A DNA stretch of 64,000 bases from an uncultured Ignavibacteriaceae bacterium. GTDB taxonomy: Bacteria > Bacteroidota > Ignavibacteria > UBA10030 > BY39. The position numbers were made by a program, and so were the translations under genes. Each line of letters starts with the position of its first letter. Positions within the stretch are counted from its first letter, which is position 1. Below are positions 5,883 to 64,000 of the stretch, in pieces. A model generated the notes under the pieces. It was not told the origin of the DNA, ran no database searches, and saw only the letters and a program-made list of their open reading frames with translations. The stretch spans positions 9,499 to 73,498 of the forward strand of contig CAZOQB010000008.1 in NCBI GenBank assembly GCA_964581995.1. The letters run 5' to 3'.

Positions 5883-7448
5883 TTAGACTTTTGGTTCTAA
5901 CACACTGAGGGGGAGAATAACTTCTTCCATCGAGATACCGCCGTGCTGAAAGCTGTCTCGATATTGAGCAAGATATTTATGATAGTCGGTGGGATACACA
6001 AAATAGTAATCTTCTTTTGCAATGATATAGTTTATCGTAACACCTCGATTTGGCAATCTATAGTCGGCGGGATTTTTTATGAAGATAGCATGTTTATCTT
6101 CCACTTTCAGATTTCTACCGAATTTATAACGGAGGTTAGTAGCAGCTTCACGGTCGCCAATAACTTTCGCGCCTCGCATACAGCGGATACTGCCGTGGTC
6201 GGTAGTTATCACGACTTTAACATTCTTCTGAGTTGAGAGAGTCTTTAACATATTGAAAAATGAAGAATGATTAAACCAGGACTGTGTTAGTGAGCGGTAG
6301 GCTGATTCCTCTGGGGCTATTTCCTTCAATAATTGTGAATCCGACCTGCCGTGAGCAAGCATATCCACAAAATTTACAACGATTGATGTCAATTTATTGT
6401 GAGTGTAGGATAAAATATTTTGTTCAATCCCCTTACCGAATTCAGGGTCGATAATTTTTATATATTTTGGTTCAGGTTTTAAGTTTATTTTCCGCCGTTC
6501 AAGCAGATTGATTAAAAACTCTGCTTCGTTTTTATTTCGACTATTGTCGTCGTCTTCCCATTTTTCCCAAATCTCAGGGAAACGCTTTTCGATATCATTG
6601 GGCCATGAGCCGCTAAAGATCGCATTTCGTGAATAGGGCGTTGCCGTTGGAAGAATTGAATAATAAAAATTCCTTTTTATGTCGTAGAAATCTCTCAGGG
6701 CATTTTCCATCCCTAACCATTGGTCAAGCCGCATACAATCCACCACAAAAAAGAAAACTGATTTACCATTTTGCAGTTCAGGAATTAAATACTTATCAAC
6801 AACATCGACAGAGAGCACGGGGCGTTTGGATGATTCGAGCCAGTGTTTGTAATTCTTCTCGATATAATTTGAAAACTCCTGGTTCGCAGTTCGGTACTGA
6901 TCTATAAGAGTGTCTTTTAAGCCAAGTTCAGGATGAGCATCAAAATCCATTGACCAACCGACAAGCTTATTGTATATTTGAACCCAATCGTCATGGTCGG
7001 GAGCGGAGAATAATGATGAAGAAATTTCATTAAACTCTTTTAGATAATCGCGAGAGACGTATTCGCTTTCGATCTTCTTGCCCTCTAAAAATTTTTTGCA
7101 AGCAAGCAGTATTTGACTTGGGTTAACAGGTTTGGTAAGATAATCGCTGATTTTCCCTCCGATTGCATTTTCCATTAAACCTTCGTCTTCACTTTTTGTA
7201 ACCATAACCACAGGCAGTTCAGGGCGAGTGTCCTTTATTTCGGAGAGAGTTCGCAGTCCGCCCATACCAGCCATCATCTCATCTAAAAAAACGAGGTCAA
7301 ATCTTTTTTTGGTTACCAACTCTACTGCATCTTCACCGTTGGTAGCAGTTTCAACGTCGTAACCTTTTTCTTTTAAAAAGAGGATATGTGGACGAAGAAG
7401 CTCGATTTCATCGTCAACCCAGAGGATTTTGCCTTTTGTACTTGTCAT
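5883..7448 (-). CDS. porX: PorX-like response regulator: CheY-type receiver fused to a PglZ (alkaline-phosphatase superfamily) domain; T9SS regulator
   Basis: 521 aa. N-terminal receiver (ILWVDDE...DLVFLDEMMAGMGG...VTK). The C-terminal ~380 aa has PglZ-like metal-binding motifs (VVDCMRLD, TDHG). The length matches PorX. Confidence 0.75.
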   Translation of the reverse strand: MTSTKGKILWVDDEIELLRPHILFLKEKGYDVETATNGEDAVELVTKKRFDLVFLDEMMAGMGGLRTLSEIKDTRPELPVVMVTKSEDEGLMENAIGGKISDYLTKPVNPSQILLACKKFLEGKKIESEYVSRDYLKEFNEISSSLFSAPDHDDWVQIYNKLVGWSMDFDAHPELGLKDTLIDQYRTANQEFSNYIEKNYKHWLESSKRPVLSVDVVDKYLIPELQNGKSVFFFVVDCMRLDQWLGMENALRDFYDIKRNFYYSILPTATPYSRNAIFSGSWPNDIEKRFPEIWEKWEDDDNSRNKNEAEFLINLLERRKINLKPEPKYIKIIDPEFGKGIEQNILSYTHNKLTSIVVNFVDMLAHGRSDSQLLKEIAPEESAYRSLTQSWFNHSSFFNMLKTLSTQKNVKVVITTDHGSIRCMRGAKVIGDREAATNLRYKFGRNLKVEDKHAIFIKNPADYRLPNRGVTINYIIAKEDYYFVYPTDYHKYLAQYRDSFQHGGISMEEVILPLSVLEPKV

Positions 7449-30519: not shown

Positions 30520-33500
30520 GTGAACATTTCAAAAGATACTTCATATTTTAAGAAGTCATTTATCCCTTCTAAAAGCAGAATATTATTCTCTCTGCTATTT
30601 CTGATATTATTTGCTATATTAATTTTTACACCAAGCGAACGGGTTCAATCTTTCACGAATAACTACTCGCGAATAGATACAACCGAAACCGATTCAGACA
30701 CACTCGATATAGAAGAAGAAGAAGACACAGAAGAGGCGGTAGATCAGTATAGACCCTCATCCCGTGCAGACCGGCTGCACCAAGCCGATAATGATACGAC
30801 GTTGGATAATTTTCTCGAAAGAGATTCTACACAATCTCTGGCAATCGTTGATGAAGTGTTTGTAGATTCCTCAGCAAGAGTCGAGCAATTCATATACGAA
30901 CGAAGTGATATTCCGTACACAAACCCTTTTGCCAATCCACTCCATCCGTTATTTTTAGAAAACCGAACCACCGCTTATCGGTTGAACGTCGCACTTGACA
31001 GCACCGGAAAATATGTTACTCTCAACGAACAAATCTATGATAAGGATGTAAAAGTTCCTATCACATTGTCTCTCGACGATTACATCAATAAACGTCTTGA
31101 GTTTGAAAGATATAAAAACTGGAGGGCTTTAACACAAACTTACACCGAAAACAAAAAGGGCATTGGTCTTGGAGATTTATTTGGAACAATCACGAACATA
31201 GATATACCCGTCCCATCCGTTCCGCTATTGAGTATTTTTGGACCGCCGAGAATAAATTTAAAAATCAACGGGGCGGTCGATATACGCGCCGGTTTCCGAA
31301 GCCAAAAATCGGATCAGGCTACTATATCGCGGCAAGATCAGGTTCGCAACGAACCGAACTTCAATCAGGAAGTTCAGATAAACGTGAACGGAACTATCGG
31401 AGATAAGCTCAACATACTCGCCGACTGGAATACGCAAAGAACGTTCGAGTACGAAAACCAATTGAAGTTAAAGTACACCGGCTACGAGGATGAGATAATT
31501 CAAAGCATCGAAGCCGGTAATGTTTCATTAGCCTCGCCTGCTTCATTCGTTGGCAGCAGTCAGGCGTTGTTCGGTATTAAAGGAAAATTCCAGTTAGGTC
31601 CACTCACATTACAAACGGTTATGTCTCAGAAAAAGGGTCAAACAAAAGAGTTGACTGCCGCGGGCGGCGCTCGAGAAATACCGTTCGAAATTAAAGCTTA
31701 TAATTATTCACAAAACCACTATTTTTTAGATACCCTATATAGAAGTATATTCGAGAGTTTTTATTCCTCCTACAATGCGCAGATTTCATCAAATATGCTT
31801 TCATACCAGGTTATTGAGATTGAAGTTTGGAAAACTAAAATTGGATACATTTCTCAATCTAACGAAATAGTAGTGCAAGGTACTGCCTATTTAGATTTAC
31901 CTTACTTGTATCCAAATGAAAAGTATCCGGATTCGTTAAGAGATAAAAGTTCAGGTGAAAATATTGAAAACGCAAGATGGTTAAAACTCCAACCGAATGA
32001 ATTTAAATACAACAAGTATGCGGGTTATCTTTCTTTAAATTCATCATTGTCCGACAACGAAGCTTTAGCGGTAGCTTTTCGAACATCGGGTCCAACGGGT
32101 AATCCGGATGATGATTTTATGTACGGTGAGTTTGCCGGCTCTGATACCTCTAAAAAAATAATACTAAAATTAATAAAACCTAAAAAAAGTTTAAGTCCAA
32201 ACGATAAAGTAAGCTGGAATTTAATGCTTAAAAACATATACTCGCTTGGCGGCAGCAATCTAAAAAAAGAAGGATTTAAACTTAATATAATACGCGAAGA
32301 AGGCGGAGTAAGCGACAGAACCGATGTACTGGGATATGAACTGCTGCAAGTATTAGGACTTGATAAATATAGTGCCGATGGTTCCCCAAATCCCGACAAT
32401 GAATTTGATTACCTTCCGGGCTATACGGTAGATGAAGCTCGTGCAGAAATTATATTTCCGTCACTTGAACCGTTTAAAAAAACAACCCGTGAATATCTGC
32501 TGTCGAAAGGACAGCCTGAAAGTGTGATTGATTCTCTCACGTTTCCGGAAATTTATGACTCAATACGTTATTATGCTGAACGTAGCATCAACAGTAAATA
32601 CATACTTAGGGGAAAATCCTCTACAGAAATGCGAAGCAAATATCCTCTCGGATTCAACATCGTTGAAGGAAGCGTTCAGGTATTACTCGATGGCACTCCT
32701 CTCGCCCCCAATGTTGACTACTCGGTCGATTATATGATTGGAGAAGTCATTATACGTAATCCGAGGGCGCTCGTACCCGGCGCAAATCTTCAGATCAAAT
32801 ACGAGCAGAACGATTTATTCCAGCTCGCATCTAAAACTTTAATCGGTGCTCGCGGTGAAATAGACCCGTTCCCAAACACCAAACTCGGCTTCACTATAAT
32901 GAATCTGAATCAGGAAACGCTCAGCGATAAAGTCAGATTAAATGAGGAGCCTACCAATAACTCAATCTTCGGTGTGGACGCTATGACTTCATTCAACCTG
33001 GGTTTTTTAACAAGCGCTGTTGATGCGCTTCCGCTTATTAAGACCAAGGAAATGTCAACCATAAAATTTGCGGGTGAAGCTGCATACATGCTTCCAGACC
33101 CAAACACAAAGAAAAGTCCGATAGCAGGCGATAAAGGATCTGGAATTGCATACATAGACGACTTCGAAGGGGCGCGGCGTAATATGCCTTTCGGCGTTAG
33201 TTATTCTATCTGGAAACTTGCAAGTCCTCCTGCAAACTCCAAACTCGGTAACATACCTGATTCAATAAAAGCATACTCCAGGGCAGAACTTCAATGGTAT
33301 AATAAGCTCCCCAGTGATGTCTTAATAACAGATATTTGGCCCAATAAAAGCGTTCGTCTCGGACAAGAACAAGTCACAGTTTTAAACTTTGATTACTTCC
33401 CTAAAGAGCGCGGAACATACAATTACTCGAAGAACTTAGATTCTACTCTGCTGCAAGACCCTACAAAAAACTGGGGTGGTGTAATGAAATTTTTAGGTGG

Positions 33501-36500
33501 TTCGGGAACAAATATAATTGAACAAAATATTAACTACATCGAAATTTGGTTAAAAACAGAAAACATAGCAGGTCAGGCACTACCCGATTTACGAAAGGGT
33601 CGCCTCTTTATCAACTTAGGCAAAATTAGTGAAGATGTTATACCCAACAATAAATTGAATTCCGAAGACCTTGTTAAAAGCACTTTTCCAAACGGCGTCC
33701 TGAATCCTGGTGAGGATGTTGGATTAGATATGTTGACAGATGAACAAGAAAGAGCTGCTTACGCTTCACTAATTGAAAAATATCCTTCGTTAGCTTCCGA
33801 CCCGAGCGGCGACAACTGGTCTTACTCAACGGGCGGTAAAGATTTCAGCCGAATCAACGAAACACAAGGAAACGAACCAAGCGCTGAAGGTAGATTCCCT
33901 GACACCGAAGACCTAAACGCTAATGGCGATGTCGACCTCACCAATAGCTATATTGAATATGAAATTCCTGTAGATACCTCTTATATTGATTCGCTTGGCT
34001 TTGAAAGAAACAATGAATTCATAACCGGCGGTGGTACACAAGGATGGTATCAAATTCGCGTACCGCTAACTGATTATACACGATTGGTTGCTCAAGGCAC
34101 TGAAACTTCTGTTCAAATTCTACAAAATCTACAATATATTCGAATGTGGGTATCAGGTTTTGATGAACCCGTTCGATTTCGCATAGCTGAAGTTGGTCTT
34201 GTAGGTAACCAGTGGCAGGAATCAAACAAAGCAGATACTGTTCTTAAAGTATCTGTTGTCAATATCGAAGATAATCCTGCATATACAAGTCCGCCCGGTG
34301 TAATTCGTGAGCGCGATAGAACTCAACCTGACCAAGAAGTATTAGGAAACGAGCAATCGCTTACACTAATCATAAACGGTTTACCGGATGGACAGAACAG
34401 AGATGTTTTTAAAAATTATTCTTACCGTGCGCTCGATGTATTCAACTACAAGACGATGAAGATGTTTGTTTATGGCGACCCAAAGTTTGTTTTCCTCGAT
34501 ACGAGTAACTACGATGCCGAAGTATATTTACGATTCGGATTGGATTCATTAAACTACTACGAATATCGAGCACCACTCCATCAAGGATGGGACCCTCCAA
34601 ACAACGAAGTCGTTATTAGGTTTGCTGATTTAACTGCAATCAAAGAAGGGCGTGATTCGGTACAAAAACGGTCGAACCCTGTTCCAGTAAACGGCGGACC
34701 TCCGGGCGCTACGTATTCAGTTCGTGGGAACCCTGCCCTTACTAACATTCGGTTTATTTGGGTGGGAGTTGAAAATCCACTCAATAAAGGCACAGGTTTA
34801 CCGCTCACAGGCGAAGTATGGATAAACGAATTACGTGTCTCGGATGTTGACGATACTCCCGGCTGGGCATACCGATTCGATACGCAGCTAAAGATTGCAG
34901 ACTTCGGAAATGCGGCTTTTAATTATTCTAAAGTTGATCCTTACTTCCACGGACTCGACCAGCGATTCGGCTCGCGCACAACCGGTGTAAACTGGGCTGC
35001 AAGCGCTAATTTTTCTCTCGATAAATTCTTCTCGGAGGAATGGCAGGGAACATCTATTCCGTTTAGCTATTCTCACACGGAAAATATTTCAAAGCCCCAA
35101 TACCTTCCAAATACCGATATACGTGTAGACCAGGCTGCTGAACGTGCTTCTCAAGCTGTTTTACAAAACGGCGGAACTTCTCAAGAAGCGGAAGAAGTAA
35201 AAACCGAGATACTCACACAAGCTCAATCGGTACGTAATTCAGATTCTTATGCGGTTCCGAACTTTCGCATAAACTTTCCATCATCGGCATGGTACGTAAG
35301 GGAAACTGTAAATAAATTAAGCTGGTCGTTTAATTACACAAAATCATTCGAACGAAACCCTATGATAGCCAACAGAACAGCCTGGGCTTGGAGTGGTAGA
35401 GGTGGTTATGCTGTGAACCTTCCCGCAGATTTTTATTTTTCTCCTTTTACAAAATTATTCGACGGTGTTTACCTTTTAGACGAATACAAGAACTATAAAA
35501 TATTTTTTATACCGATAACAAGCTTCAACGCGGGTATCTCTGCCCAACGTGGCCAGACACGCGAAACCGCACGCTTACAAACCGCACAAAGACCAGTTAC
35601 ACGTAACTTTAGCGCAAACAGGTCATTATCCTTTGGATGGAAGTTGACTGAAGGTGGTCTGCTGAGTATTGCTGGTGATTACGGCCTTAGCATCGAAAGC
35701 ATTCTATCACATCTTGAGACTGATACTTCTGGACAGCAGAGGCCCTTCACCGATATACTGAAGGATATATTCAAGACAAACAAGATAATAAATTTCGGAC
35801 GCGACGCGCGTTATGGGCAGCGTATAACGATAAATTCCAAGCCGAAGATTCCAAATATTTTCGACATCAATAAGTATCTGGATCTAACATTCGGTTACAA
35901 CGTAAACTATAGCTGGCAAAACAATTTCCAATCGGGCGATATCGGTAAGAGTGCAGGTTGGGATAACAACATTAATTTTTCATCTAATTTCAGATTGAAG
36001 GCATTGACCGACCCGTGGTTCGTAGTCAAGGATGAACCGGTAGGGCAACCCAAGATTAATGCGCCTACTCGAAGTCGTCAGCGTGAGTTAGCTGAAGAAT
36101 CGGATATTCCAAAAGACTCGACTGGTACTGCGATTCAGGATACAACACCAACACCAAAGACACCGAGTAAAATCTGGGGACAACTGAGAAACCTTACAAA
36201 AATATTTATTAAATACCCGCTTCTTGATTACGAAACAATAAATATTACTTACGCACAAACGAATCGATCTGGAAACGGCGGAATTCGTGGAAGCACCGGC
36301 CTTATGAACTTCTGGGGTCGCGCGCCATTCCAGGAAGCCAATCCTGAATACGGTCCATCACGTTTGTATCAATTGGGAATTATTTCTGACCCCAGCGGGA
36401 CGCTTAACACGAAAACAACATCCGGCTTCCCATTCTTAAAATTTGAGACCACAAAAGGACTTAGAGCTGCCAACGCTTCGCTGCAAGATCAGTTTGCTCA

Positions 36501-37509
36501 GACTAATCGAATTCAACTCAGAACCAACCGACCGTTATGGGAAGGAGCTACATTAGACCTTAACTGGAGTTTAAGCTGGTCTTTCAATAAAGTAACTACG
36601 ATAAACACTGACCCTGAAGGAGTCCCAACAATCAGTTCGGTTGCTGTTTCAGGTAACGTGGAGAGGTCTTACTTTACTTTACCACCAGTTTTACTCTTTA
36701 AGATGTTAAAAAGTAATTTAGAAGAAGTCGGGAAAAAATATAATCAAAGAAAAGCAGATGCTAGTGATACAGCACCCGATGACGTAAAGTTAGCTGAATC
36801 TTTCGAGCAAGGCATGGAAGCCTTACCTTTATTGAGTAAAATTATCGGTCCTCTTGCGCCGCGAGCTAATTACGCTCTACGTTGGGATGGTTTAGAAAAA
36901 GTTTTAGGTGTTACGAGTTATTTCGACCGCATACAATTAGACCATGCTTATACATCTAACTTTACGAAACAGTGGCGTGGAAACCCAAACGGCGGCGAGC
37001 GAACTGAAGGAGAACGCATAAATTTTGGATTCTCTCCTCTGCTTGGGCTTAATACCACCATGAAAGAATTATTGAAGGGCAATTTTACCGCCTCTTTACG
37101 TTACAACACTACTACGGCTTACGACCTTAACATCGCCGCGAGAAATATTATGAGTACTTTAGCACAAGAACTTTCAGTATCGTTAAGTTACTCCAGACGC
37201 GGTTTCGAGTTCCCGCTTTTCGGTCTTTCATTGAGCAACGATTTAGATATTAGCGCAACTTACTCATCTACTCATAACTCACGTACTACTTACGAAATAA
37301 GTCAACTGGAAACAAACCCGGACGGAACCCCGCTTGAAGGTACGACCAGAACAATGCTTGAGCCGAGAATTAAATATGTATTAAGCTCCCGCGTCACAGC
37401 CTCGATATTCTATAGATATACTAAAATCGCACCCGACGAAGGCGGATCTCTAATACCGGGCACCACCACGAATGAAGGTGGTTTAGACTTGAGGATTGCA
37501 ATTCAATAA
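30520..37509 (+). CDS. sprA: SprA/Sov-like giant outer-membrane protein (T9SS translocon)
   Basis: 2329 aa. Single ORF with GTG start, N-terminal hydrophobic signal/anchor, Asp/Glu-rich linker, then a very long beta-rich body. Size and architecture match SprA. Other T9SS components and cargo are in the window. Confidence 0.7.
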   Translation: MNISKDTSYFKKSFIPSKSRILFSLLFLILFAILIFTPSERVQSFTNNYSRIDTTETDSDTLDIEEEEDTEEAVDQYRPSSRADRLHQADNDTTLDNFLERDSTQSLAIVDEVFVDSSARVEQFIYERSDIPYTNPFANPLHPLFLENRTTAYRLNVALDSTGKYVTLNEQIYDKDVKVPITLSLDDYINKRLEFERYKNWRALTQTYTENKKGIGLGDLFGTITNIDIPVPSVPLLSIFGPPRINLKINGAVDIRAGFRSQKSDQATISRQDQVRNEPNFNQEVQINVNGTIGDKLNILADWNTQRTFEYENQLKLKYTGYEDEIIQSIEAGNVSLASPASFVGSSQALFGIKGKFQLGPLTLQTVMSQKKGQTKELTAAGGAREIPFEIKAYNYSQNHYFLDTLYRSIFESFYSSYNAQISSNMLSYQVIEIEVWKTKIGYISQSNEIVVQGTAYLDLPYLYPNEKYPDSLRDKSSGENIENARWLKLQPNEFKYNKYAGYLSLNSSLSDNEALAVAFRTSGPTGNPDDDFMYGEFAGSDTSKKIILKLIKPKKSLSPNDKVSWNLMLKNIYSLGGSNLKKEGFKLNIIREEGGVSDRTDVLGYELLQVLGLDKYSADGSPNPDNEFDYLPGYTVDEARAEIIFPSLEPFKKTTREYLLSKGQPESVIDSLTFPEIYDSIRYYAERSINSKYILRGKSSTEMRSKYPLGFNIVEGSVQVLLDGTPLAPNVDYSVDYMIGEVIIRNPRALVPGANLQIKYEQNDLFQLASKTLIGARGEIDPFPNTKLGFTIMNLNQETLSDKVRLNEEPTNNSIFGVDAMTSFNLGFLTSAVDALPLIKTKEMSTIKFAGEAAYMLPDPNTKKSPIAGDKGSGIAYIDDFEGARRNMPFGVSYSIWKLASPPANSKLGNIPDSIKAYSRAELQWYNKLPSDVLITDIWPNKSVRLGQEQVTVLNFDYFPKERGTYNYSKNLDSTLLQDPTKNWGGVMKFLGGSGTNIIEQNINYIEIWLKTENIAGQALPDLRKGRLFINLGKISEDVIPNNKLNSEDLVKSTFPNGVLNPGEDVGLDMLTDEQERAAYASLIEKYPSLASDPSGDNWSYSTGGKDFSRINETQGNEPSAEGRFPDTEDLNANGDVDLTNSYIEYEIPVDTSYIDSLGFERNNEFITGGGTQGWYQIRVPLTDYTRLVAQGTETSVQILQNLQYIRMWVSGFDEPVRFRIAEVGLVGNQWQESNKADTVLKVSVVNIEDNPAYTSPPGVIRERDRTQPDQEVLGNEQSLTLIINGLPDGQNRDVFKNYSYRALDVFNYKTMKMFVYGDPKFVFLDTSNYDAEVYLRFGLDSLNYYEYRAPLHQGWDPPNNEVVIRFADLTAIKEGRDSVQKRSNPVPVNGGPPGATYSVRGNPALTNIRFIWVGVENPLNKGTGLPLTGEVWINELRVSDVDDTPGWAYRFDTQLKIADFGNAAFNYSKVDPYFHGLDQRFGSRTTGVNWAASANFSLDKFFSEEWQGTSIPFSYSHTENISKPQYLPNTDIRVDQAAERASQAVLQNGGTSQEAEEVKTEILTQAQSVRNSDSYAVPNFRINFPSSAWYVRETVNKLSWSFNYTKSFERNPMIANRTAWAWSGRGGYAVNLPADFYFSPFTKLFDGVYLLDEYKNYKIFFIPITSFNAGISAQRGQTRETARLQTAQRPVTRNFSANRSLSFGWKLTEGGLLSIAGDYGLSIESILSHLETDTSGQQRPFTDILKDIFKTNKIINFGRDARYGQRITINSKPKIPNIFDINKYLDLTFGYNVNYSWQNNFQSGDIGKSAGWDNNINFSSNFRLKALTDPWFVVKDEPVGQPKINAPTRSRQRELAEESDIPKDSTGTAIQDTTPTPKTPSKIWGQLRNLTKIFIKYPLLDYETINITYAQTNRSGNGGIRGSTGLMNFWGRAPFQEANPEYGPSRLYQLGIISDPSGTLNTKTTSGFPFLKFETTKGLRAANASLQDQFAQTNRIQLRTNRPLWEGATLDLNWSLSWSFNKVTTINTDPEGVPTISSVAVSGNVERSYFTLPPVLLFKMLKSNLEEVGKKYNQRKADASDTAPDDVKLAESFEQGMEALPLLSKIIGPLAPRANYALRWDGLEKVLGVTSYFDRIQLDHAYTSNFTKQWRGNPNGGERTEGERINFGFSPLLGLNTTMKELLKGNFTASLRYNTTTAYDLNIAARNIMSTLAQELSVSLSYSRRGFEFPLFGLSLSNDLDISATYSSTHNSRTTYEISQLETNPDGTPLEGTTRTMLEPRIKYVLSSRVTASIFYRYTKIAPDEGGSLIPGTTTNEGGLDLRIAIQ

Positions 37510-49416: not shown

Positions 49417-49456
49417 GTTGCCATTTTAAATAACTTTTTGTATGTTCAATTATCAT
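49417..49456. repeat. Copy 1 of imperfect 40-bp direct repeat (gttgccattttaaataactttttgtatgttcaattatcat)
   Basis: Matches 54237-54275 at 37/39 positions with a 1-nt indel. Lies 27 nt upstream of the TIR-like gene ATG. Confidence 0.85.
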
Positions 49457-49482
49457 ACCAGATAACAGAAAAAGATAATATT

Positions 49483-50919
49483 ATGAATCCCAAATTATTT
49501 ATTTCATATAGTTGGTCAACAGCGGAACATGGTCAATGGGTTATTGATCTCGCAACTTCCTTACGTGAATCGGGAGTTGATGTTATACTGGATAAATGGG
49601 ACCTGAGAGAAGGTAATGATGCCAATGCATTTATGGAAAAGATGGTCACAGACCCCGATATAAAAAAGGTTTTAATAATTTGCGATAAAAAATACTCTGA
49701 CAAAGCAGATCAGAGAGAAGGTGGTGTTGGTACAGAAACACAAATTATATCACCCGAAATATATAAAAACCAAAATCAAGATAAGTTTGTTGCAGTAATT
49801 TCTGAGTTAGATGAGAATGGCAAACCATATTTACCAGTATTTTATAAATCTAGAATATACATTGATCTATCGGATAACGAACGATATGCAATAAATTATG
49901 ATCAATTATTAAGATGGATTTATGACAAACCACTTTATGTTAAACCAGAACTTGGCGCCATGCCTTCGTTTCTTGATGAAAAAGATGGAATCAAATTAGG
50001 CACTACTTCAAATTATAGGCGTGCAATAGATGCATTAAAGAATAATCGGCCAAATGTCAAACCAGCATTACGTGATTATTTTGATAAGTTTGCACAGGGA
50101 TTTGAGCAGTTTAGAATAACAGAACGCAAAGGTGAATTTGATGATCAAGTAATAGAGAGTATTGAAAAATTTATTCCATATAAAAATGAGATTATTGATT
50201 TATTTAGCACGATCGTACAGTATTCAAATACAAAGGAGAATCAACAAATAATACATCGATTTTTCGAGAACTTGATTCCATATCTGGATAGGCCTGAAGG
50301 AGTTAATTCATTCTTTGAAACCGACTTTGATAATTTTAAATTTATGATTCATGAATTGTTTTTGTATTTAATTGCATCGTTTCTTAAGTACGAAGCATTT
50401 GATGCAGTTTCATATTTTTTACGAACCCCATACTTGATAAAAAATGCAGGCGAATACCCGAGAAATACCAACAATAACTATACTATATTTAGACCTTATC
50501 TTAAATCTTTGGAATATCGAAATCAAAGATTAAATCTACGGCAATATTCTCTTCATGCAAATCTGTTGCATAAATATTCAAAAGGCACAGGATTTCATTC
50601 TGAGGAGATTATGCAAGCGGATTTCATTTTATATATCAGAGATACCCTCGACTCAATTCGAAAGAAAACAGACTGGCGTTGGTATCCCGTTACATTGCAT
50701 TACATGGGTTTTAGTCATCCACCTTTTGAAATATTCGTTCGAGCAGAAGATGCGGAATATTTTAATATAATTAAGCCAATACTTAATATTAAAATGAAAG
50801 AAGACCTACAAATAATCTGGGGAGGTACTCAGCAAAGAAATATGCAGAAGCTCCGTATAGGAGATAATTCAATAAATCCTGAGGTGCTTCTTGGATACGA
50901 TAAATTGGCAACTCAATAG
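49483..50919 (+). CDS. TIR/SEFIR-like domain protein fused to an uncharacterised ~320-aa C-terminal domain
   Basis: ORF 49438-50919 begins with TTG inside the repeat; probable true start is ATG 49483 (MNPKLFISYSW). N-terminal ~150 aa fits the TIR_2/SEFIR pattern (LFISYSWSTAEHGQWVIDLATSLRESGVDVILDKWDLREGND...KVLIICDKKYSDKAD...FVAVISELD...PVFYKSRIYIDL). The remainder has no motif I recognise. AT-rich by eye. Confidence 0.65.
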   Translation: MNPKLFISYSWSTAEHGQWVIDLATSLRESGVDVILDKWDLREGNDANAFMEKMVTDPDIKKVLIICDKKYSDKADQREGGVGTETQIISPEIYKNQNQDKFVAVISELDENGKPYLPVFYKSRIYIDLSDNERYAINYDQLLRWIYDKPLYVKPELGAMPSFLDEKDGIKLGTTSNYRRAIDALKNNRPNVKPALRDYFDKFAQGFEQFRITERKGEFDDQVIESIEKFIPYKNEIIDLFSTIVQYSNTKENQQIIHRFFENLIPYLDRPEGVNSFFETDFDNFKFMIHELFLYLIASFLKYEAFDAVSYFLRTPYLIKNAGEYPRNTNNNYTIFRPYLKSLEYRNQRLNLRQYSLHANLLHKYSKGTGFHSEEIMQADFILYIRDTLDSIRKKTDWRWYPVTLHYMGFSHPPFEIFVRAEDAEYFNIIKPILNIKMKEDLQIIWGGTQQRNMQKLRIGDNSINPEVLLGYDKLATQ

Positions 50920-51090: not shown

Positions 51091-51597
51091 CTAATTTTTC
51101 TCTTCTTTATCTTCGCCCTTTTCAGAATCTTCAGTTTCTATTTTCATAACTTTGTTTGTCTTTGCATTCACGTCCACTTCAACAATTTTTCCGTCTTTAG
51201 TTTTAATCTCAAATGAGTAGATCGTTTTCCCTTTTTCTTTCTTCAATTCTTTTTGAACAATTTCACCCGGTACTTTTTTCAGTGCCGCCTTCTCGGCTTT
51301 ATCGGAGACTTGCTCTTCCTTTTCTTTTACTGCGGATTCTTCTTCTGCCTTGATAACCTTACCTGTCTTTGCATCAACCCAAACCTCCTTTGTCGTTTCG
51401 CCGACTTTTAAATCGAACGACCAAATCAATTTGCCTTCTTCTTTTTCTAATTCTGAGCTTTGAATAACTGCATCCTTAAATTGTTCGAGAGCAACTTTAG
51501 TGGCTTGTTCTTTTGTTATTTTCGCATCGTTTTTCTTCTGAGCAAAGCTTGTTGAAACTACAATCATACACACGAGTAACGCAATAAGAGATTTCAT
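51091..51597 (-). CDS. Secreted tandem-PepSY domain protein
   Basis: 168 aa. Signal peptide. Two PepSY-like repeats (KLIWSFDLKVGETTKEVWVDAKTGKVIK, KTIYSFEIKTKDGKIVEVDVNAKTNKVMK) separated by Lys/Glu-rich linkers. Confidence 0.7.
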   Translation of the reverse strand: MKSLIALLVCMIVVSTSFAQKKNDAKITKEQATKVALEQFKDAVIQSSELEKEEGKLIWSFDLKVGETTKEVWVDAKTGKVIKAEEESAVKEKEEQVSDKAEKAALKKVPGEIVQKELKKEKGKTIYSFEIKTKDGKIVEVDVNAKTNKVMKIETEDSEKGEDKEEKN

Positions 51598-51819: not shown

Positions 51820-54105
51820 ATGCACATCAAAATTAGGCTATCTCGCTTAATTATCATCTTAGGCGTTTTATTTTTATATACATTTTCGTCGTTTTCTCAA
51901 GAGTACATTTTACTCGGTTGGAATGATCTCGGTATGCATTGTTCCAACAAAGACTTTTCTAAGGTTGTAGTCCTGCCGCCTTACAACAACATCACAGCGC
52001 AGCTAATTCTCAAACAACCAAATCAATTACCACAAGTTGTTACCTCCGGTTATACTATCGAGTATTCAATTCCTAATAACACATACTCTGTCGGTAAGAC
52101 AAATTTCTGGACTTACGCACAACAATTGTTTGGCTTGTCTTCACCATTACTACCTAACATCGGTTTAACAGGCAAGGGTCTTACCGGAGTTCTTGATAGC
52201 AGCGGAACTTATTTTGCTGCACATGGAATTCCCATAACCCCATTTACAGATACCGATTTAGTTAATGAATCGCCGTATCAGTTGATTCATCTTGTTGCCA
52301 GAAGTAAAGCTAACGGCAGCATTCTTGCCACAACGGACGTTGTTATTCCTGTAAGTAACGAAGTAGGTTGCGTGCAATCGGGGTGTCATAGTTCTGAGAC
52401 GTCTATATTAAATGCACATGAGCCGGTTTCCGGCTTTAACAGATCGGGACCCGTGTTATGCGCATCGTGTCATGCTTCAAATGCGCTTGGTACTACGGGT
52501 ATTCCGGAAGCGCAATCTTTTTCTTTTCGAATTCATGATAAACACAAAGATGTTGCAGGACCTTCAAACAGTATTTCTACATGTTATAAATGTCATCCCG
52601 GACCGAATACACAATGTCTGCGCGATGTAATGGGAAAGAATCCAACCAACCCAATGGTGTGCCAGGATTGTCACGGAACCATGAGCAATGTCGCATCAAC
52701 AATTACAGCAGGCAGACGACCCTGGCTTGACGAACCCAAATGTGGAACATGCCACGGACCCACGCATGCGGAAGAGACTGGGAAGTTGTACAGACAATCA
52801 AAAGGTCATGGTGGTTTGTTTTGTTCCGCGTGCCATGGAAGTCCACATGCTATACAGCCGACAGTTCAACCGAACGATAATCTTCAGAATACAAGACTTC
52901 AAGGATTTGCCGGTACTTTACAAAAATGTTCTGTTTGTCATACCACACGCATGGATGGTTCGGGTCCTCACGGTATCACGGATACAACAACTGTTGTCAT
53001 CGCTACGCCTTCACTCTCCTTTCCGCCTGACGGTTCAACTGGAATTACTACCCGTCCGCAACTGCAGTGGAATTCCGTGCCGAATGCACAGACATACGTT
53101 TTGCAAGTATCGTTAGATTCGCTTTTTGCAACAACTGTTGTCGATGATTCTTCACTTTCCCAAACTTCACTACAGCTTAATCCGTTAATTTCGATTACAA
53201 AATATTATTGGAGAGTTCGCGCAAAAAATTCAAACATCATAAGTGCCTGGTCGCCAAGATGGGAATTTATTACTACAGAAGGCACAACACTCACAGTAAA
53301 TTTAGATATGAAATGGAATTTGGTATCGCTTCCTCTTGAAGTTATTAATCCAAGTATAAATACTCTATTCCCTACGGCAAGTACAAAAGCTTTTCAATAC
53401 TTCGGGGGCAGTGGATATCTACAGAATGATTCGCTGTCGTTTGGAAATGGTTATTGGATAAAATTTGGCGCCTCACAATCCGTAAATGTTACAGGTACAC
53501 CGGTTAATTCAGATTCTATAGCTGTTACAACTGGATGGAACCTCGTCGGTTCAATATCAACCGCAGTCCCAACCGCATCCATTATCAGCGATCCACCCGG
53601 ATTGGTTACCAGCATTTTTTATGGATACCAAGGAAGTTATGTACAATCCGACACTATTTTCCCTGGAAAAGCATACTGGGTGAAAGTAAATCAACCGGGT
53701 CGCTTTATATTATCGTCGGGCGTCGCGAAAAATTCGTTCAAGACAATTCAGATAACACCTTCATCCGAGATGCCTCCACCTCCGCCGGGTGGTGAGCCGA
53801 CAGTAATTAAAGAAATTCCAAAAGACTATTTGTTGGCACAATCATATCCTAATCCGTTCAATCCTTCTACGAGGATTAGTTATACGCTTCCGGTAGATAG
53901 TAAAGTAACGTTGAAAATATTCGACATGCTCGGTCGCGATATTGTTACGCTGGTTCAAGCGGAGCAAAGTCAAGGTTACCGAACCGTTGAATGGAATGCG
54001 GTGGGATATACAAGCGGAATCTATTTTTATAAGATCGAAGCTGTGAGTGTTGACGATCCGAATAAGGTGTTCACGGATATTAAAAAAATGGTTGTGCTGA
54101 AATAA
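51820..54105 (+). CDS. Multiheme c-type cytochrome (6 CxxCH plus 1 CX4CH) with FN3-like domain and T9SS C-terminal sorting domain
   Basis: 761 aa. Signal peptide. Heme motifs CASCH, CYKCH, CQDCH, CGTCH, CSACH, CSVCH plus CVQSGCH. FN3-like segment (PQLQWNSVPNAQTYVLQVS...YYWRVRAKN). C-terminal ~85 aa match the Por/T9SS CTD (SYPNPFNPSTRISYTLP..VTLKIFDMLGRDIVTLV...SGIYFYKIEA...KKMVVLK). Confidence 0.8.
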   Translation: MHIKIRLSRLIIILGVLFLYTFSSFSQEYILLGWNDLGMHCSNKDFSKVVVLPPYNNITAQLILKQPNQLPQVVTSGYTIEYSIPNNTYSVGKTNFWTYAQQLFGLSSPLLPNIGLTGKGLTGVLDSSGTYFAAHGIPITPFTDTDLVNESPYQLIHLVARSKANGSILATTDVVIPVSNEVGCVQSGCHSSETSILNAHEPVSGFNRSGPVLCASCHASNALGTTGIPEAQSFSFRIHDKHKDVAGPSNSISTCYKCHPGPNTQCLRDVMGKNPTNPMVCQDCHGTMSNVASTITAGRRPWLDEPKCGTCHGPTHAEETGKLYRQSKGHGGLFCSACHGSPHAIQPTVQPNDNLQNTRLQGFAGTLQKCSVCHTTRMDGSGPHGITDTTTVVIATPSLSFPPDGSTGITTRPQLQWNSVPNAQTYVLQVSLDSLFATTVVDDSSLSQTSLQLNPLISITKYYWRVRAKNSNIISAWSPRWEFITTEGTTLTVNLDMKWNLVSLPLEVINPSINTLFPTASTKAFQYFGGSGYLQNDSLSFGNGYWIKFGASQSVNVTGTPVNSDSIAVTTGWNLVGSISTAVPTASIISDPPGLVTSIFYGYQGSYVQSDTIFPGKAYWVKVNQPGRFILSSGVAKNSFKTIQITPSSEMPPPPPGGEPTVIKEIPKDYLLAQSYPNPFNPSTRISYTLPVDSKVTLKIFDMLGRDIVTLVQAEQSQGYRTVEWNAVGYTSGIYFYKIEAVSVDDPNKVFTDIKKMVVLK

Positions 54106-54133
54106 ACCTTAAAATATCCAAGTTGCATTTTGA

Positions 54134-54168
54134 TTGCCACGGGCTTTTGTTCGTGGCAATTTTTATTT
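54134..54168 (+). terminator. Rho-independent terminator after the cytochrome gene
   Basis: Stem ttgccacg/cgtggcaa (54134-41, 54152-59), 10-nt loop, then tttttattt. Confidence 0.7.
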
Positions 54169-54236
54169 ATGCCGGCTAACCTCCCGAATGCTTAATTTGC
54201 TTTAACATGATTACCTTCGGGATGTTCACACAAAAG

Positions 54237-62634: not shown

Positions 62635-64000
62635 TTATTTCTTAATAACTTCAAATACTAACTTAAGCAATTTTTCTGCAGTATAGGGTTTAAGTAAAAA
62701 CTTCACCGACTTTTGCTGTATGAATTCTACGCTCTGTTCCAACCCGCTCACCGCAAGAATTTTAACAACGGGATTCATGTTTCGTAGTGCCAGGATCGTA
62801 GCTTCACCACTCATGTACGGCATCATCATGTCGGTTATGACGAGAGCAATATTCTGAGCATGAGTTGCATACAGTGCTATTGCTTCTGTTCCGTCGTTTC
62901 CGGTGAGAACTCTGTATCCTGATGCCTCAAGTGTTTCTTTTGTGATCTCACGAATGGATGCTTCGTCATCTACCACAAGTATTAATTCGCCATTTCCCAA
63001 CGGAAGCTCTGATTTCTTCTCATCCTTTTCAATTGCCTGATACTTTATTTCAGCAGGTAAATAAAATTTAAATGTAGTTCCTTTGTTTTTCTCACTATAA
63101 ACATCGATAAAACCGCCATGATTTTTAATTATCGATCGTACTGTTGACAGTCCTAGCCCCGTTCCTTTTCCAATTTCTTTTGTTGTGAAGAACGGCTCGA
63201 AGATTCTTTCAAGTATCTCGTGAGGAATACCCGTACCTGTATCGGTAACTGATATTAGAACGTAATTACCGGCTTTTGCTTCAATCTGCATCCTTGCATA
63301 ATTTTCGTCTAGGCGAATATTTTCGGCAGAGATTGTAAGAGTTCCGCCGCTTGGCATGGCGTCTCTTGCATTCACAAAAGTATTCAACAATACCTGATGC
63401 ATCTGAGTTGGGTCTGCATTTATTAACCATAAATCTTTGGGTACATCGTTGCGGATTTGGATGTCCTTCTGAAATGTTTCTTGAGCAATCTTTACAATTT
63501 CGTTTATTACATGTCTGGGCTGGATTAAACCACGCTCACCCTCCACACCACGGCCAAACGCCAATACTTGTTTTACAATATCGGCTCCACGCTTTGCGCT
63601 TGTTCCCATCGTCTCAAGCATTCGCTGACTATCGGCATCGGTATGTTTTTTCCGTAGAATCTCAAGCGCCAGCATTATCGGCGCTAACACATTATTCAGA
63701 TCGTGTGCGATACCGCCGGCAAGTGTACCTATACTTTCCATCCGCTGAGAGCGGAGAAATTGCTGCTCCAACGATTTTTTCTCGGTTATGTCGCGGGAAA
63801 CAACCACCACGTTTGAAACTTTGCCTTTTTCATCACGGATAACACTGCCATTTGATTCAATGAAATGGATGCTTCCATCTTTCGCTACAAATCTGTATTC
63901 AGTTCGCTGTCCGATACCAGTCTCGACTGTCTGATTAAAAATGCGCTTGATTTTCTCTCTGTCGTCGGGGTGAATTTCTTGAAATGAATCCGTCCCCTCT
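62635..64000 (-). CDS. PAS sensor hybrid histidine kinase with C-terminal receiver; 5' end beyond window
   Basis: Frame is open to the window edge upstream of the listed M (…DGSIHFIESNGSVIRDEKGKVSNVVVVSRDITEKK = PAS). HisKA LAGGIAHDLNN. HATPase DTGTGIP and GTGLGLS. Receiver LVVDDE...ITDMMMP. Confidence 0.8.
   Translation of the reverse strand, partial: EGTDSFQEIHPDDREKIKRIFNQTVETGIGQRTEYRFVAKDGSIHFIESNGSVIRDEKGKVSNVVVVSRDITEKKSLEQQFLRSQRMESIGTLAGGIAHDLNNVLAPIMLALEILRKKHTDADSQRMLETMGTSAKRGADIVKQVLAFGRGVEGERGLIQPRHVINEIVKIAQETFQKDIQIRNDVPKDLWLINADPTQMHQVLLNTFVNARDAMPSGGTLTISAENIRLDENYARMQIEAKAGNYVLISVTDTGTGIPHEILERIFEPFFTTKEIGKGTGLGLSTVRSIIKNHGGFIDVYSEKNKGTTFKFYLPAEIKYQAIEKDEKKSELPLGNGELILVVDDEASIREITKETLEASGYRVLTGNDGTEAIALYATHAQNIALVITDMMMPYMSGEATILALRNMNPVVKILAVSGLEQSVEFIQQKSVKFLLKPYTAEKLLKLVFEVIKK

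Follow-up and report, generated by a model that had tools for sequence, protein, structure and literature searches.

Among the described outer-surface multiheme cytochromes, MtrC, MtrF and OmcA of Shewanella are lipidated and reach the cell surface via the T2SS. Their ten hemes are bound in a duplicated, four-domain arrangement, in which pentaheme and beta-barrel domains (two each) alternate. For the Ignavibacteria and related Bacteroidota, we know of no outer-surface electron-transfer protein that has been identified to date. Multiheme cytochromes abound in Ignavibacteria, which have repeatedly been enriched on anodes or by dosing with Fe(III); related Bacteroidota share this pattern, which extends to Fe(III)-dosed sludge and iron-rich sediments (PMC7399161, PMC11495043). 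In the genome paper on Melioribacter, the Fe(III) reductase of the outer membrane remained hypothetical (PMC3534657), and porin-cytochrome complexes of the OmaB/OmbB/OmcB type have been reported for Ignavibacterium album and Melioribacter roseus (PMC7399161).

A second point of comparison is provided by cargo proteins of the type IX secretion system (T9SS) with a type-A C-terminal sorting domain (CTD), such as the gingipains of Porphyromonas gingivalis and the secreted glycoside hydrolases of Flavobacterium and Melioribacter. These proteins carry a Sec signal peptide and a beta-sandwich CTD of ~85 aa, as does the protein described below. Further traits in common are that the predicted mature form begins with Gln, that spacer domains precede the CTD, and that SprA and PorX are encoded in the genome. 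To our knowledge, no c-type cytochrome has been experimentally shown to pass through the T9SS, and our literature search returned no paper that combines the T9SS with multiheme or c-type cytochromes in a relevant sense.

The gene studied here lies in a 64-kb stretch of DNA, referred to as the window, and has traits in common with each of these systems. It probably encodes a secreted c-type cytochrome with seven hemes, a T9SS cargo that mediates electron exchange between the cell envelope and redox partners outside the cell. The open reading frame (51820..54105, plus strand) was confirmed at the position given in the original prediction; it is complete, starts with ATG and encodes 761 aa, with a single codon between the ATG and the upstream stop. 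An identical protein (P0001) is encoded on a 141-kb ENA contig. The gene is monocistronic, the upstream neighbor being divergent and the downstream neighbor convergent, both on the opposite strand. A pattern scan placed a hairpin resembling an intrinsic terminator, as a consensus match only, 27 nt past the stop codon (54132..54171, plus strand); it has a 13-bp stem with 6 G-C pairs and is followed by a T-rich tail. Scanning for sigma-70 promoters at the gene gave sites no more numerous than in shuffled sequences, and the lineage may use other promoter types. The surroundings are of a housekeeping kind, without a respiratory operon, and, in a comparison of 83 loci, the PepSY neighbor of the gene proved particular to this window.

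The six CxxCH motifs and the one CX4CH motif of the original prediction were borne out by our motif scan, and all of them lie within aa 184-374 (nt 52369-52941, plus strand): CVQSGCH (the CX4CH motif, aa 184-190), CASCH (aa 214-218), CYKCH (aa 255-259), CQDCH (aa 281-285), CGTCH (aa 308-312), CSACH (aa 335-339) and CSVCH (aa 370-374). This is the only multi-CxxCH open reading frame in the window. Among 20,000 shuffles of the protein sequence, none contained two or more CxxCH motifs and 148 contained one. Cytochrome_C7 matches aa 306-375 with 26.8 bits. A lack of motif conservation in homologs had been named beforehand as an argument against a true cytochrome; we found that none of the Cys and His in the seven motifs varies among 120 homologs (37-76% whole-alignment identity), and that they are near-invariant in 146 cluster representatives (50% identity clusters). 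Genes for ccm or ccs functions were absent from the window and from the parts of the contig that were inspected.

Exactly seven further His are invariant in the 120 homologs (H40, 200, 239, 242, 330, 343 and 384). Since this number equals that of the hemes, it fits seven bis-His hemes that would act as an electron relay, not a catalytic site. His40 is part of an N-terminal beta-sandwich (aa 27-180; 51898..52359, plus strand) with the near-invariant motif GWNDLGMHC, and it is likely a heme ligand, which would complete the set of seven distal His and thereby make all hemes bis-His. The adjacent Cys41, the first Cys of the protein, covaries with Cys266, both being lost together in 3 of the 120 sequences, and a disulfide between the two is likely. 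As the structure models were built without hemes, these His-heme and Cys-Cys assignments were made by conservation alone. The cytochrome core formed by the beta-sandwich and the heptaheme domain (aa 181-392; 52360..52995, plus strand) is not covered by a dedicated Pfam family, and no relative of it has a solved structure.

Judged from its sequence, the heme part appears to be a remote relative of domain II/IV of MtrC/MtrF, with a score for PF22113 (MtrC/MtrF II-IV) of 29.3 bits (E 7.6e-7), 0.7 bits below the gathering cutoff of 30. The alignment spans aa 188-320 (hemes 1-5) and profile positions 11-171 of 176, and the same model matches half of the distant relatives (28/56) at E <= 1e-4, with a best E of 3e-20. 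When a profile of the distant relatives was compared with PDB sequences, MtrF (3pmq) was the best match (E 9.7e-6, with high compositional bias), followed by 6i5b (E 0.0023), 1sp3 (E 0.007) and NrfA-type proteins (E 0.058-0.1). PDB sequence searches with the close-family profile or the heme domain alone gave no relevant match, and NCBIfam matches of the relatives to NrfB- and DmsE-type models were far below cutoff. The entry 6i5b, which the PDB search labels 'Uncharacterized protein', probably corresponds to OcwA, a nonaheme terminal reductase on the surface of Thermincola potens. It would be a cell-surface multiheme cytochrome outside the Proteobacteria, as is presumed for the window protein, but the weak similarity is broken up into four short stretches, and heme number and anchoring differ.

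The remaining PDB matches raise the question of whether the protein could be a catalytic multiheme enzyme, i.e. a secreted reductase or oxidase acting on a small molecule (such as nitrite, hydroxylamine, tetrathionate, sulfite or peroxide), instead of a relay. Such a function would be in line with the weak matches of the distant-relative profile to octaheme tetrathionate reductase (1sp3) and NrfA-type nitrite reductases, and with the invariant Met271 and the near-invariant His157, which are spare potential ligands or active-site residues. We nonetheless consider it highly unlikely. The matches to catalytic families are non-significant and confined to CxxCH-rich stretches, a CxxCK motif is absent with His following every Cys pair, and the extra invariant His, equal in number to the hemes, leave no obviously open coordination site.

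Returning to an electron-transfer protein, the comparison with MtrC, MtrF and OmcA shows extracytoplasmic multiheme proteins in both cases, with a beta-rich domain before a compact heme domain and a presumed outer-surface location. The window protein differs in that it has seven hemes, with one beta-sandwich and one heme domain, that it lacks a lipobox (aa 1-40 contain no Cys) as well as adjacent mtrA/mtrB-type genes, and that its export would depend on a T9SS CTD. We view it as probably an outer-surface cytochrome that is MtrC/OmcA-like in kind and deployed by the T9SS, not as a T2SS-exported lipoprotein.

Features outside the cytochrome core are consistent with such a path. The Sec signal peptide (aa 1-26, MHIKIRLSR / LIIILGVLFLYTF / SSFS; 51820..51897, plus strand), read from the sequence by eye, comprises a charged n-region, a hydrophobic h-region and a putative cleavage site between SFS and Q, and the AlphaFold model shows a helix spanning aa 3-21. 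Among 120 homologs, 98 have Ala or Ser at position 26 and 107 have Gln at position 27; Ala or Ser at -1 with Gln at +1 is a pattern reported for secreted Bacteroidota proteins. Cleavage is predicted to occur before Gln27.

The FN3-like domain of the original prediction lies downstream of the heme domain and, by our analysis, spans aa 393-488 (52996..53283, plus strand). The fold stands, as aa ~398-485 form a confident beta-sandwich in the AlphaFold model (pLDDT >90) and a Foldseek search with the full-length model returned FN3 arrays as best matches, whereas Pfam support is weak (fn3 E 0.16; Ig_Rha78A_N E 7.7e-4; also Pur_ac_phosph_N). FN3 and Ig arrays dominated this search, which yielded nothing informative on the heme part. 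The original prediction had overlooked two segments between the FN3-like domain and the CTD. One is a second beta-rich domain without an assigned family (aa 489-632; 53284..53715, plus strand), modelled with a pLDDT of 92-97 and marked by the motifs WNLVSLP...GYWIK and GWNLVG...AYWVKV. Pfam and PDB sequence searches with this domain gave no match, and there is no family model for it or for aa 27-180. In CTD-less Chitinophagales relatives it is the C-terminal domain; the tblastn matches of the loci L010-L012 reach query aa 629-631. The other is a flexible Pro-rich linker (aa 633-675, ...SEMPPPPPGGEPT...; 53716..53844, plus strand), with a pLDDT of 69-79 that falls below 50 at aa 660-663.

The protein ends in a type-A CTD (aa 676-761, SYPNPFNPSTRISYTLP...KKMVVLK; 53845..54102, plus strand). 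Checked against the T9SS models as had been proposed, it exceeds the curated cutoffs of two independent models (TIGR04183, 39.1 bits, cutoff 23; PF18962, 33.2 bits, cutoff 27), with aa 676-742 matched and the CTD region extending to the last residue (761/761). It is modelled as a beta-sandwich (pLDDT 88-97), and its motifs YPNPFNP, SGxYxY and KMxLxK are conserved across the family. Our check of the T9SS machinery covers the genes in the window, namely SprA and PorX, whereas PorK/L/M/N, PorU and PorV are encoded outside it. Both of the window genes were correctly recognized by the original prediction. The outer-membrane translocon SprA/Sov (2329 aa; 30520..37509, plus strand) reaches 1087 bits for TIGR04189 (cutoff 200) and 206.6 bits for PF14349, and the response regulator PorX (521 aa; 5883..7448, minus strand), composed of REC and PglZ domains, reaches 716.9 bits for NF052313 (cutoff 300) and matches Response_reg and PglZ. 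SprA is presumably the export channel of the cytochrome. Because the type-A CTD scores above the cutoffs and the heme motifs are invariant, the claim that the gene encodes a multiheme c-type cytochrome and T9SS cargo, with the translocon in the same genome, is well supported by the sequence, and the same grade applies to predicted export of the heme-loaded form. The passenger would then differ from known type-A cargo in being a covalent-heme redox protein and not a hydrolase or adhesin.

The routing of a redox protein through the T9SS had been called unusual, which holds for the literature searched but not for sequence space. The cytochrome has more than 4,700 homologs, and relatives are encoded at 585 or more loci in GTDB species genomes. 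The family occurs in Ignavibacteria, Kapaibacteria, Bacteroidales, Chitinophagales, Calditrichia and Zixibacteria, and also in Cytophagia MAGs. A survey of the CTD in homologs, another proposal of the original prediction, identified a terminal CTD in at least 56 of 85 family members from species-representative genomes by means of a family-derived HMM, with carriers spread across the core tree. The count is a lower bound, since L077 has a type-A CTD that this HMM missed. About one third of the family members in species genomes have no recognizable CTD, and an NCBIfam scan for alternative sorting domains in these variants, type-B CTDs among them, found none. Lipoproteins are frequent among distant relatives, as are fusions to Ig-like, cadherin-like, BACON, PKD or FG-GAP domains, and one Lentimicrobiaceae MAG encodes a CTD copy together with a lipoprotein paralog.

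The CTD-less third bears on whether the CTD of the window protein might be vestigial or unrecognized by the secretion system, so that the cytochrome would remain periplasmic and act as an ordinary soluble electron carrier. These variants indicate that the core can function without a CTD, at least in other lineages or locations. For the window protein, we regard this as extremely unlikely, given that its CTD is terminal, well above the cutoffs, confidently modelled and preserved in its motifs. Moreover, relatives without a CTD mostly possess alternative extracytoplasmic anchors or domains (lipobox, adhesin-like), and a stalk made of the FN3-like domain, the second beta domain and the Pro-rich linker fits a periplasmic carrier poorly.

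A search for the paired periplasmic cytochrome or quinol oxidoreductase suggested in the original prediction was negative in the regions covered: no porin-cytochrome, periplasmic cytochrome or quinol oxidase gene was found in the window, within ~9 kb past either end, or beside ~80 homologs. Likewise, no other multi-CxxCH open reading frame is present in the window or the contig flanks, and none is conserved near the ~80 homologs. All-against-all clustering of the open reading frames at 83 loci identified no conserved neighbors; the recurrent clusters were rejected as partners, being either spurious open reading frames that overlap the gene or local synteny among close relatives. The porin-cytochrome complexes of Ignavibacterium album and Melioribacter roseus come from the same lineage and have the same presumed purpose, to bring electrons beyond the outer membrane. 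However, they are encoded in clusters for a porin together with periplasmic and outer cytochromes, while the window cytochrome is solitary and has a secretion tag and no porin sheath. Both systems could conceivably function in series.

The isolated position of the gene also matters for a reading in which export and heme chemistry are as described above and the purpose is something other than energy-conserving electron disposal. The secreted cytochrome might then help to acquire iron by reducing ferric minerals or chelates, supply electrons to secreted oxidative polymer-degrading enzymes, or scavenge oxidants at the surface. A stand-alone gene in housekeeping surroundings without a respiratory operon is compatible with such a task. 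So is the distribution of the family, which besides Ignavibacteria includes the polymer-degrading Chitinophagales and Cytophagia. Members of these two groups are mostly aerobic heterotrophs, for which we know of no role in metal respiration, and this leaves room for non-respiratory redox roles. In addition, the second beta domain and the FN3-like domain resemble accessory modules of secreted CAZymes, and the T9SS in this group is best known for hydrolase export (PMC3534657). We still judge a non-respiratory function to be rather unlikely, although worth serious consideration. Across ~80 loci, genes for CAZymes, LPMOs, siderophores or TonB receptors were not found linked to the family, a chain of seven hemes exceeds the need of a one-electron donor, and the closest recognizable relatives are outer-surface respiratory cytochromes.

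On the reading that we favor, in which a T9SS-secreted cytochrome passes electrons between the envelope and external partners, the signal peptide would direct the protein to the periplasm and be cut off before Gln27. Seven hemes would be attached covalently at the one CX4CH and six CxxCH sites, and the beta-sandwich, contributing His40 as a distal ligand, would be clamped onto the heme domain by the Cys41-Cys266 disulfide. The type-A CTD would bring the folded holoprotein to the SprA translocon and be removed, after which the cytochrome may stay attached to the surface or be set free, the sequence being compatible with either outcome. Once exported, the heme module would sit at the tip of a stalk consisting of the FN3-like domain, the second beta domain and the Pro-rich linker. 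Electrons could then be passed between the envelope and Fe(III)/Mn(IV) minerals, humics, electrodes or other cells, with both the direction of flow and the physiological partner being presumptive, and they would have to cross the outer membrane via a conduit not encoded near the cytochrome gene. A role in extracellular electron transfer, as put forward in the original prediction, is a plausible inference.

The large, uncharacterized heptaheme family may represent a means of placing redox proteins on or outside the cell surface in this group of bacteria. A broader and more tentative proposal, which we put forward as possible while leaning somewhat against it, is that the T9SS is a previously unrecognized, lineage-wide route for deploying heme-loaded cytochromes in the FCB group (Ignavibacteria, Kapaibacteria, many Bacteroidales and Calditrichia), and that the family fills the place of a missing terminal reductase or oxidase at their outer surface, with minerals, humics and electrodes as partners. 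In this role it would be a functional analogue of MtrC/OmcA with a different mode of export and anchoring. A conserved, abundant and readily recognized family of T9SS-tagged cytochromes provides a concrete candidate for outer-surface electron transfer in Ignavibacteria and Bacteroidota. If confirmed, it would be the first covalent-heme cargo shown for the T9SS and would extend the known scope of this system, so far hydrolases and adhesins, to redox proteins. Metagenomic surveys would also gain a means of marking extracellular redox capacity in a phylum group largely missed by marker sets built on Mtr, Omc and porin-cytochrome systems.

The cytochrome ORF at 51820-54105 (+) comprises 761 codons with an ATG start, and an in-frame stop lies one codon 5' of this ATG, so that a longer ORF is impossible. 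An identical protein is encoded on a 141-kb ENA metagenome contig. The GC content is about 40% along the whole window, and the ATP synthase alpha subunit of the window is 85-88% identical to proteins from Ignavibacteriae/Ignavibacteriales MAGs, which assigns the host to the class Ignavibacteria as an uncultured member. The gene is set among housekeeping genes (fatty-acid synthesis, RNase III, glycine cleavage, a BamA-like protein, ATP synthase, Lpt) and is monocistronic. It is flanked by a divergent gene upstream for a small secreted protein with two PepSY domains and a Lys/Glu-rich tail (51091-51597 (-)), by the convergent LysE gene downstream, and by a terminator-like hairpin with a 13-bp stem (54132-54161) 3' of the stop codon. 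The pairing with the PepSY gene is probably coincidental, since it is not kept beside homologs. Just upstream of this locus, a 493-aa protein (49438-50919 (+)) carries N-terminal SEFIR/TIR_2 domains and a long unannotated C-terminal part; it has no NCBIfam match and could be a TIR protein for anti-phage defence or signalling. At the window end, 62635-64000 (-) and the stretch continuing beyond it (L088, 10998-18400) encode three consecutive large PAS/GAF-rich sensor proteins of 1281, 408, and 718 aa, an unusually dense sensory cluster.

The original prediction described a multiheme cytochrome with a sorting domain of the type IX secretion system (T9SS), encoded in the same window as SprA and PorX, and each particular of this observation was borne out. 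The protein contains six CxxCH motifs (aa 214, 255, 281, 308, 335, and 370) and one CX4CH (CVQSGCH, aa 184). When the protein was shuffled 20,000 times, no shuffle contained even two CxxCH, and all other ORFs of the 64-kb window have at most one. The Cys and His of all seven motifs are without exception invariant among 120 aligned homologs (whole-alignment identity 37-76%), in line with a true cytochrome as proposed. Close homologs all keep the CX4CH site at aa 184, and distant paralogs have CxxCH in its place, as befits a genuine heme site. At the heme-5 site (aa 308-312, 52741-52755), close homologs have either CxxCH (here CGTCH) or CX4CH (e.g. CGSTSCH); a two-residue indel in this binding loop is evidently tolerated.

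Exactly seven His outside the motifs are invariant in the 120 homologs (H40, H200, H239, H242, H330, H343, and H384). This amounts to one per heme, as a chain of bis-His, low-spin electron-relay hemes would require, and no heme appears obviously left with an open coordination site. In view of the full complement of distal His and of the lack of any atypical heme motif, it is highly unlikely that the protein is instead a catalytic enzyme; CxxCK is absent from the cytochrome. H40 is located in the N-terminal beta-sandwich, within the family signature GWNDLGMHC, and the sandwich thus probably caps one heme. The sole cysteines outside the motifs, C41 and C266, are lost jointly (to Ser/Gln) in all three sequences without them, a pattern characteristic of a disulfide, which would here join the sandwich to the heme domain. 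These ligand and disulfide assignments rest on conservation; the structural models contain no heme.

An AlphaFold model built from 120 homologs was confident (mean pLDDT 88). It divides the protein into a signal peptide (aa 1-26), a beta-sandwich (aa 27-180, 51898-52359 (+)), a heme domain made mostly of loops and short helices (aa 181-392), an FN3-like sandwich (aa 393-488), a second beta domain (aa 489-632, 53284-53715 (+)), a low-confidence Pro-rich linker (PPPPPGG, aa 633-675), and a C-terminal sandwich (aa 676-761). Neither the N-terminal sandwich nor the second beta domain, both confidently folded in the model, matches a Pfam family even at E 10 or has a sequence relative in the PDB; the domain at aa 489-632 also forms the C-terminus of Chitinophagales relatives that lack the sorting domain. 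Of the 120 homologs, 98 have Ala or Ser just ahead of the predicted cleavage site, and 107 have Gln as the first residue of the predicted mature protein. Secreted proteins of Bacteroidota typically start with Gln once mature (the "Q-rule").

The last 86 residues were identified as a T9SS type-A sorting domain (CTD) in both curated libraries, TIGR04183 (39.1 bits, cutoff 23) and PF18962 (33.2 bits, cutoff 27), as had been expected from the primary sequence. The translocon SprA/Sov is encoded at 30520-37509 (+) (TIGR04189, 1087 bits, cutoff 200) and the response regulator PorX at 5883-7448 (-) (NF052313, 717 bits, cutoff 300). Directly 5' of sprA and on the same strand lies a gene for a Peptidase S46 of the dipeptidyl-peptidase 7/11 type (28203-30371 (+), 711 bits); the two may be co-transcribed. 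A second T9SS cargo is encoded on the same contig: positions 1-1955 (-) hold the 5' part of the gene for an 876-aa protein that combines a Por_Secre_tail with Big_5, FG-GAP, and ASH/HYDIN-like Ig domains; its CTD is encoded outside the window, past the start. The sequence strongly supports the status of the cytochrome as T9SS cargo, and we consider export as a holo-cytochrome very likely. A periplasmic protein with a dead CTD is very unlikely in view of the conserved, high-scoring CTD and the stalk architecture.

More than 4,700 homologs were retrieved by a word-indexed search; where a source gives them a name, "T9SS type A sorting domain-containing protein" is the only informative one, the others being hypothetical proteins. 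With the core alone (beta-sandwich plus heptaheme domain), an exhaustive HMMER search of 1.84 billion cluster representatives found 358 clusters at E <= 1e-30 and 953 at E <= 1e-10. Relatives are encoded at no fewer than 585 loci in GTDB species-representative genomes; the best 80 of these are all from MAGs and cover Ignavibacteria, Kapaibacteria, Bacteroidales, Lentimicrobiaceae, Chitinophagales, Cytophagia, Calditrichaceae, and Zixiibacteriota. The bare core with a CTD (~480 aa) is the most frequent architecture, while the clade of the window protein has the FN3-like and second beta domains inserted (760-960 aa). Variants include 14-heme tandem forms (~905 aa), Chitinophagales forms ending in the second beta domain without CTD (526-558 aa), Bacteroidales forms without CTD (566 aa), and short Zixibacteria forms.

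Surveying the family in species-representative genomes with an HMM of its own CTDs, we found a terminal CTD in at least 56 of 85 members, a lower bound, as TIGR04183 recovered one CTD missed by this HMM. When the core was placed in a neighbour-joining tree, proteins with a CTD were spread over all of it, and those without fell into a few discrete clades. The CTD is thus a stable trait of the FCB branch that looks ancestral, and no peculiarity of this genome. Among more distant relatives, lipoproteins with 7 or 9 hemes are frequent, and others are fusions to Ig-like, cadherin-like, BACON, PKD, or FG-GAP/Tectonin domains; all these traits are hallmarks of proteins at the cell surface. One Lentimicrobiaceae MAG (locus L072, 11829-13118 (-)) encodes, 2.4 kb from its CTD-bearing copy, a 429-aa core paralog that bears a lipoprotein signal (…VVFAC), has CxxCH at heme site 1, and carries an additional, eighth heme, suggesting that the same module is deployed via two different anchoring routes in one genome.

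A profile of the close family found no PDB sequence relative, and fold searches gave generic Ig-like matches to the N-domain only. PF22113 (MtrC/MtrF domains II/IV) aligns over profile positions 11-171 of 176 with aa 188-320 (hemes 1-5), at an E-value of 7.6e-7 and 29.3 bits, 0.7 bits below the gathering cutoff; it also matches 28 of 56 distant relatives (best E 3e-20). The best PDB match of a profile of distant relatives was MtrF (3pmq, E 9.7e-6, with high compositional bias), followed by 6i5b, which we take to be the Thermincola surface reductase OcwA, and by the octaheme tetrathionate reductase 1sp3. The Cytochrome_C7 model matched hemes 5-7 just above its cutoff. Because of these profile matches, we read the core as a putative remote member of the MtrC/MtrF heme-domain superfamily, resembling "half an MtrC" (beta domain plus pentaheme domain) with two further hemes. 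The cytochrome is outside the MtrC/OmcA family proper, however, since it has seven hemes instead of ten, one module instead of two, no lipobox, and no mtrAB-type neighbours.

In the proposed mechanism, the protein would be exported by Sec, with removal of the signal peptide, and would acquire its hemes and fold in the periplasm. The CTD would then be recognised and the folded holoprotein passed through SprA; by analogy to the T9SS of Porphyromonas and Flavobacterium, CTD removal would be followed by surface attachment or release. The FN3-like domain, the second beta domain, and the Pro-rich linker would form a stalk that holds the heme module off the cell surface, where it could relay electrons to or from external partners. 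A role in respiratory extracellular electron transfer (EET) has, in our view, nearly even odds; it would fit the MtrC/MtrF relation, the chain of bis-His hemes only, and the occurrence of Ignavibacteria on anodes and with Fe(III) (PMC7399161, PMC11495043). The main gap in this reading is the electron supply: no porin-cytochrome cluster, periplasmic carrier, or quinol oxidase was found beside the gene in the window, in ~9 kb of contig on each side, or at ~80 homologous loci. At other places, Ignavibacteria genomes are reported to contain porin-cytochrome clusters (PMC7399161), and these might operate upstream of the cytochrome. A possible membrane redox module was seen at one locus only (L041, 10001-12153 (-)), where an unrelated octaheme cytochrome of 429 aa with a membrane anchor and a polytopic membrane protein of 288 aa are encoded 0.6 kb downstream of an Ignavibacteriaceae homolog. 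The solitary gene and the occurrence of the family in aerobic polymer degraders would also suit a non-respiratory extracellular redox role, such as iron acquisition, electron delivery to secreted oxidative enzymes, or oxidant scavenging, but no CAZyme, LPMO, siderophore, or TonB-receptor gene is linked to the cytochrome gene at ~80 loci, and we regard this role as rather unlikely.

Multiheme outer-surface cytochromes and T9SS cargo are each well known separately. A full-text search of papers and preprints (~8 million) for T9SS or its sorting domain together with multiheme, multi-heme, or c-type cytochromes or EET returned nothing relevant. The Melioribacter genome paper discusses the Por CTD for CAZymes only and treats the Fe(III) reductase of the outer membrane as hypothetical (PMC3534657), and a 2024 secreted-proteome survey reports undescribed extracellular multi-heme cytochromes in Bacteroidota and leaves T9SS unmentioned (PMC11495043). 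Both the combination of T9SS cargo with a multiheme cytochrome and the heptaheme family thus appear to be undescribed. Overall, the finding is supported at the sequence level and, while no categorical surprise, should be of solid interest for electromicrobiology and for T9SS specialists.
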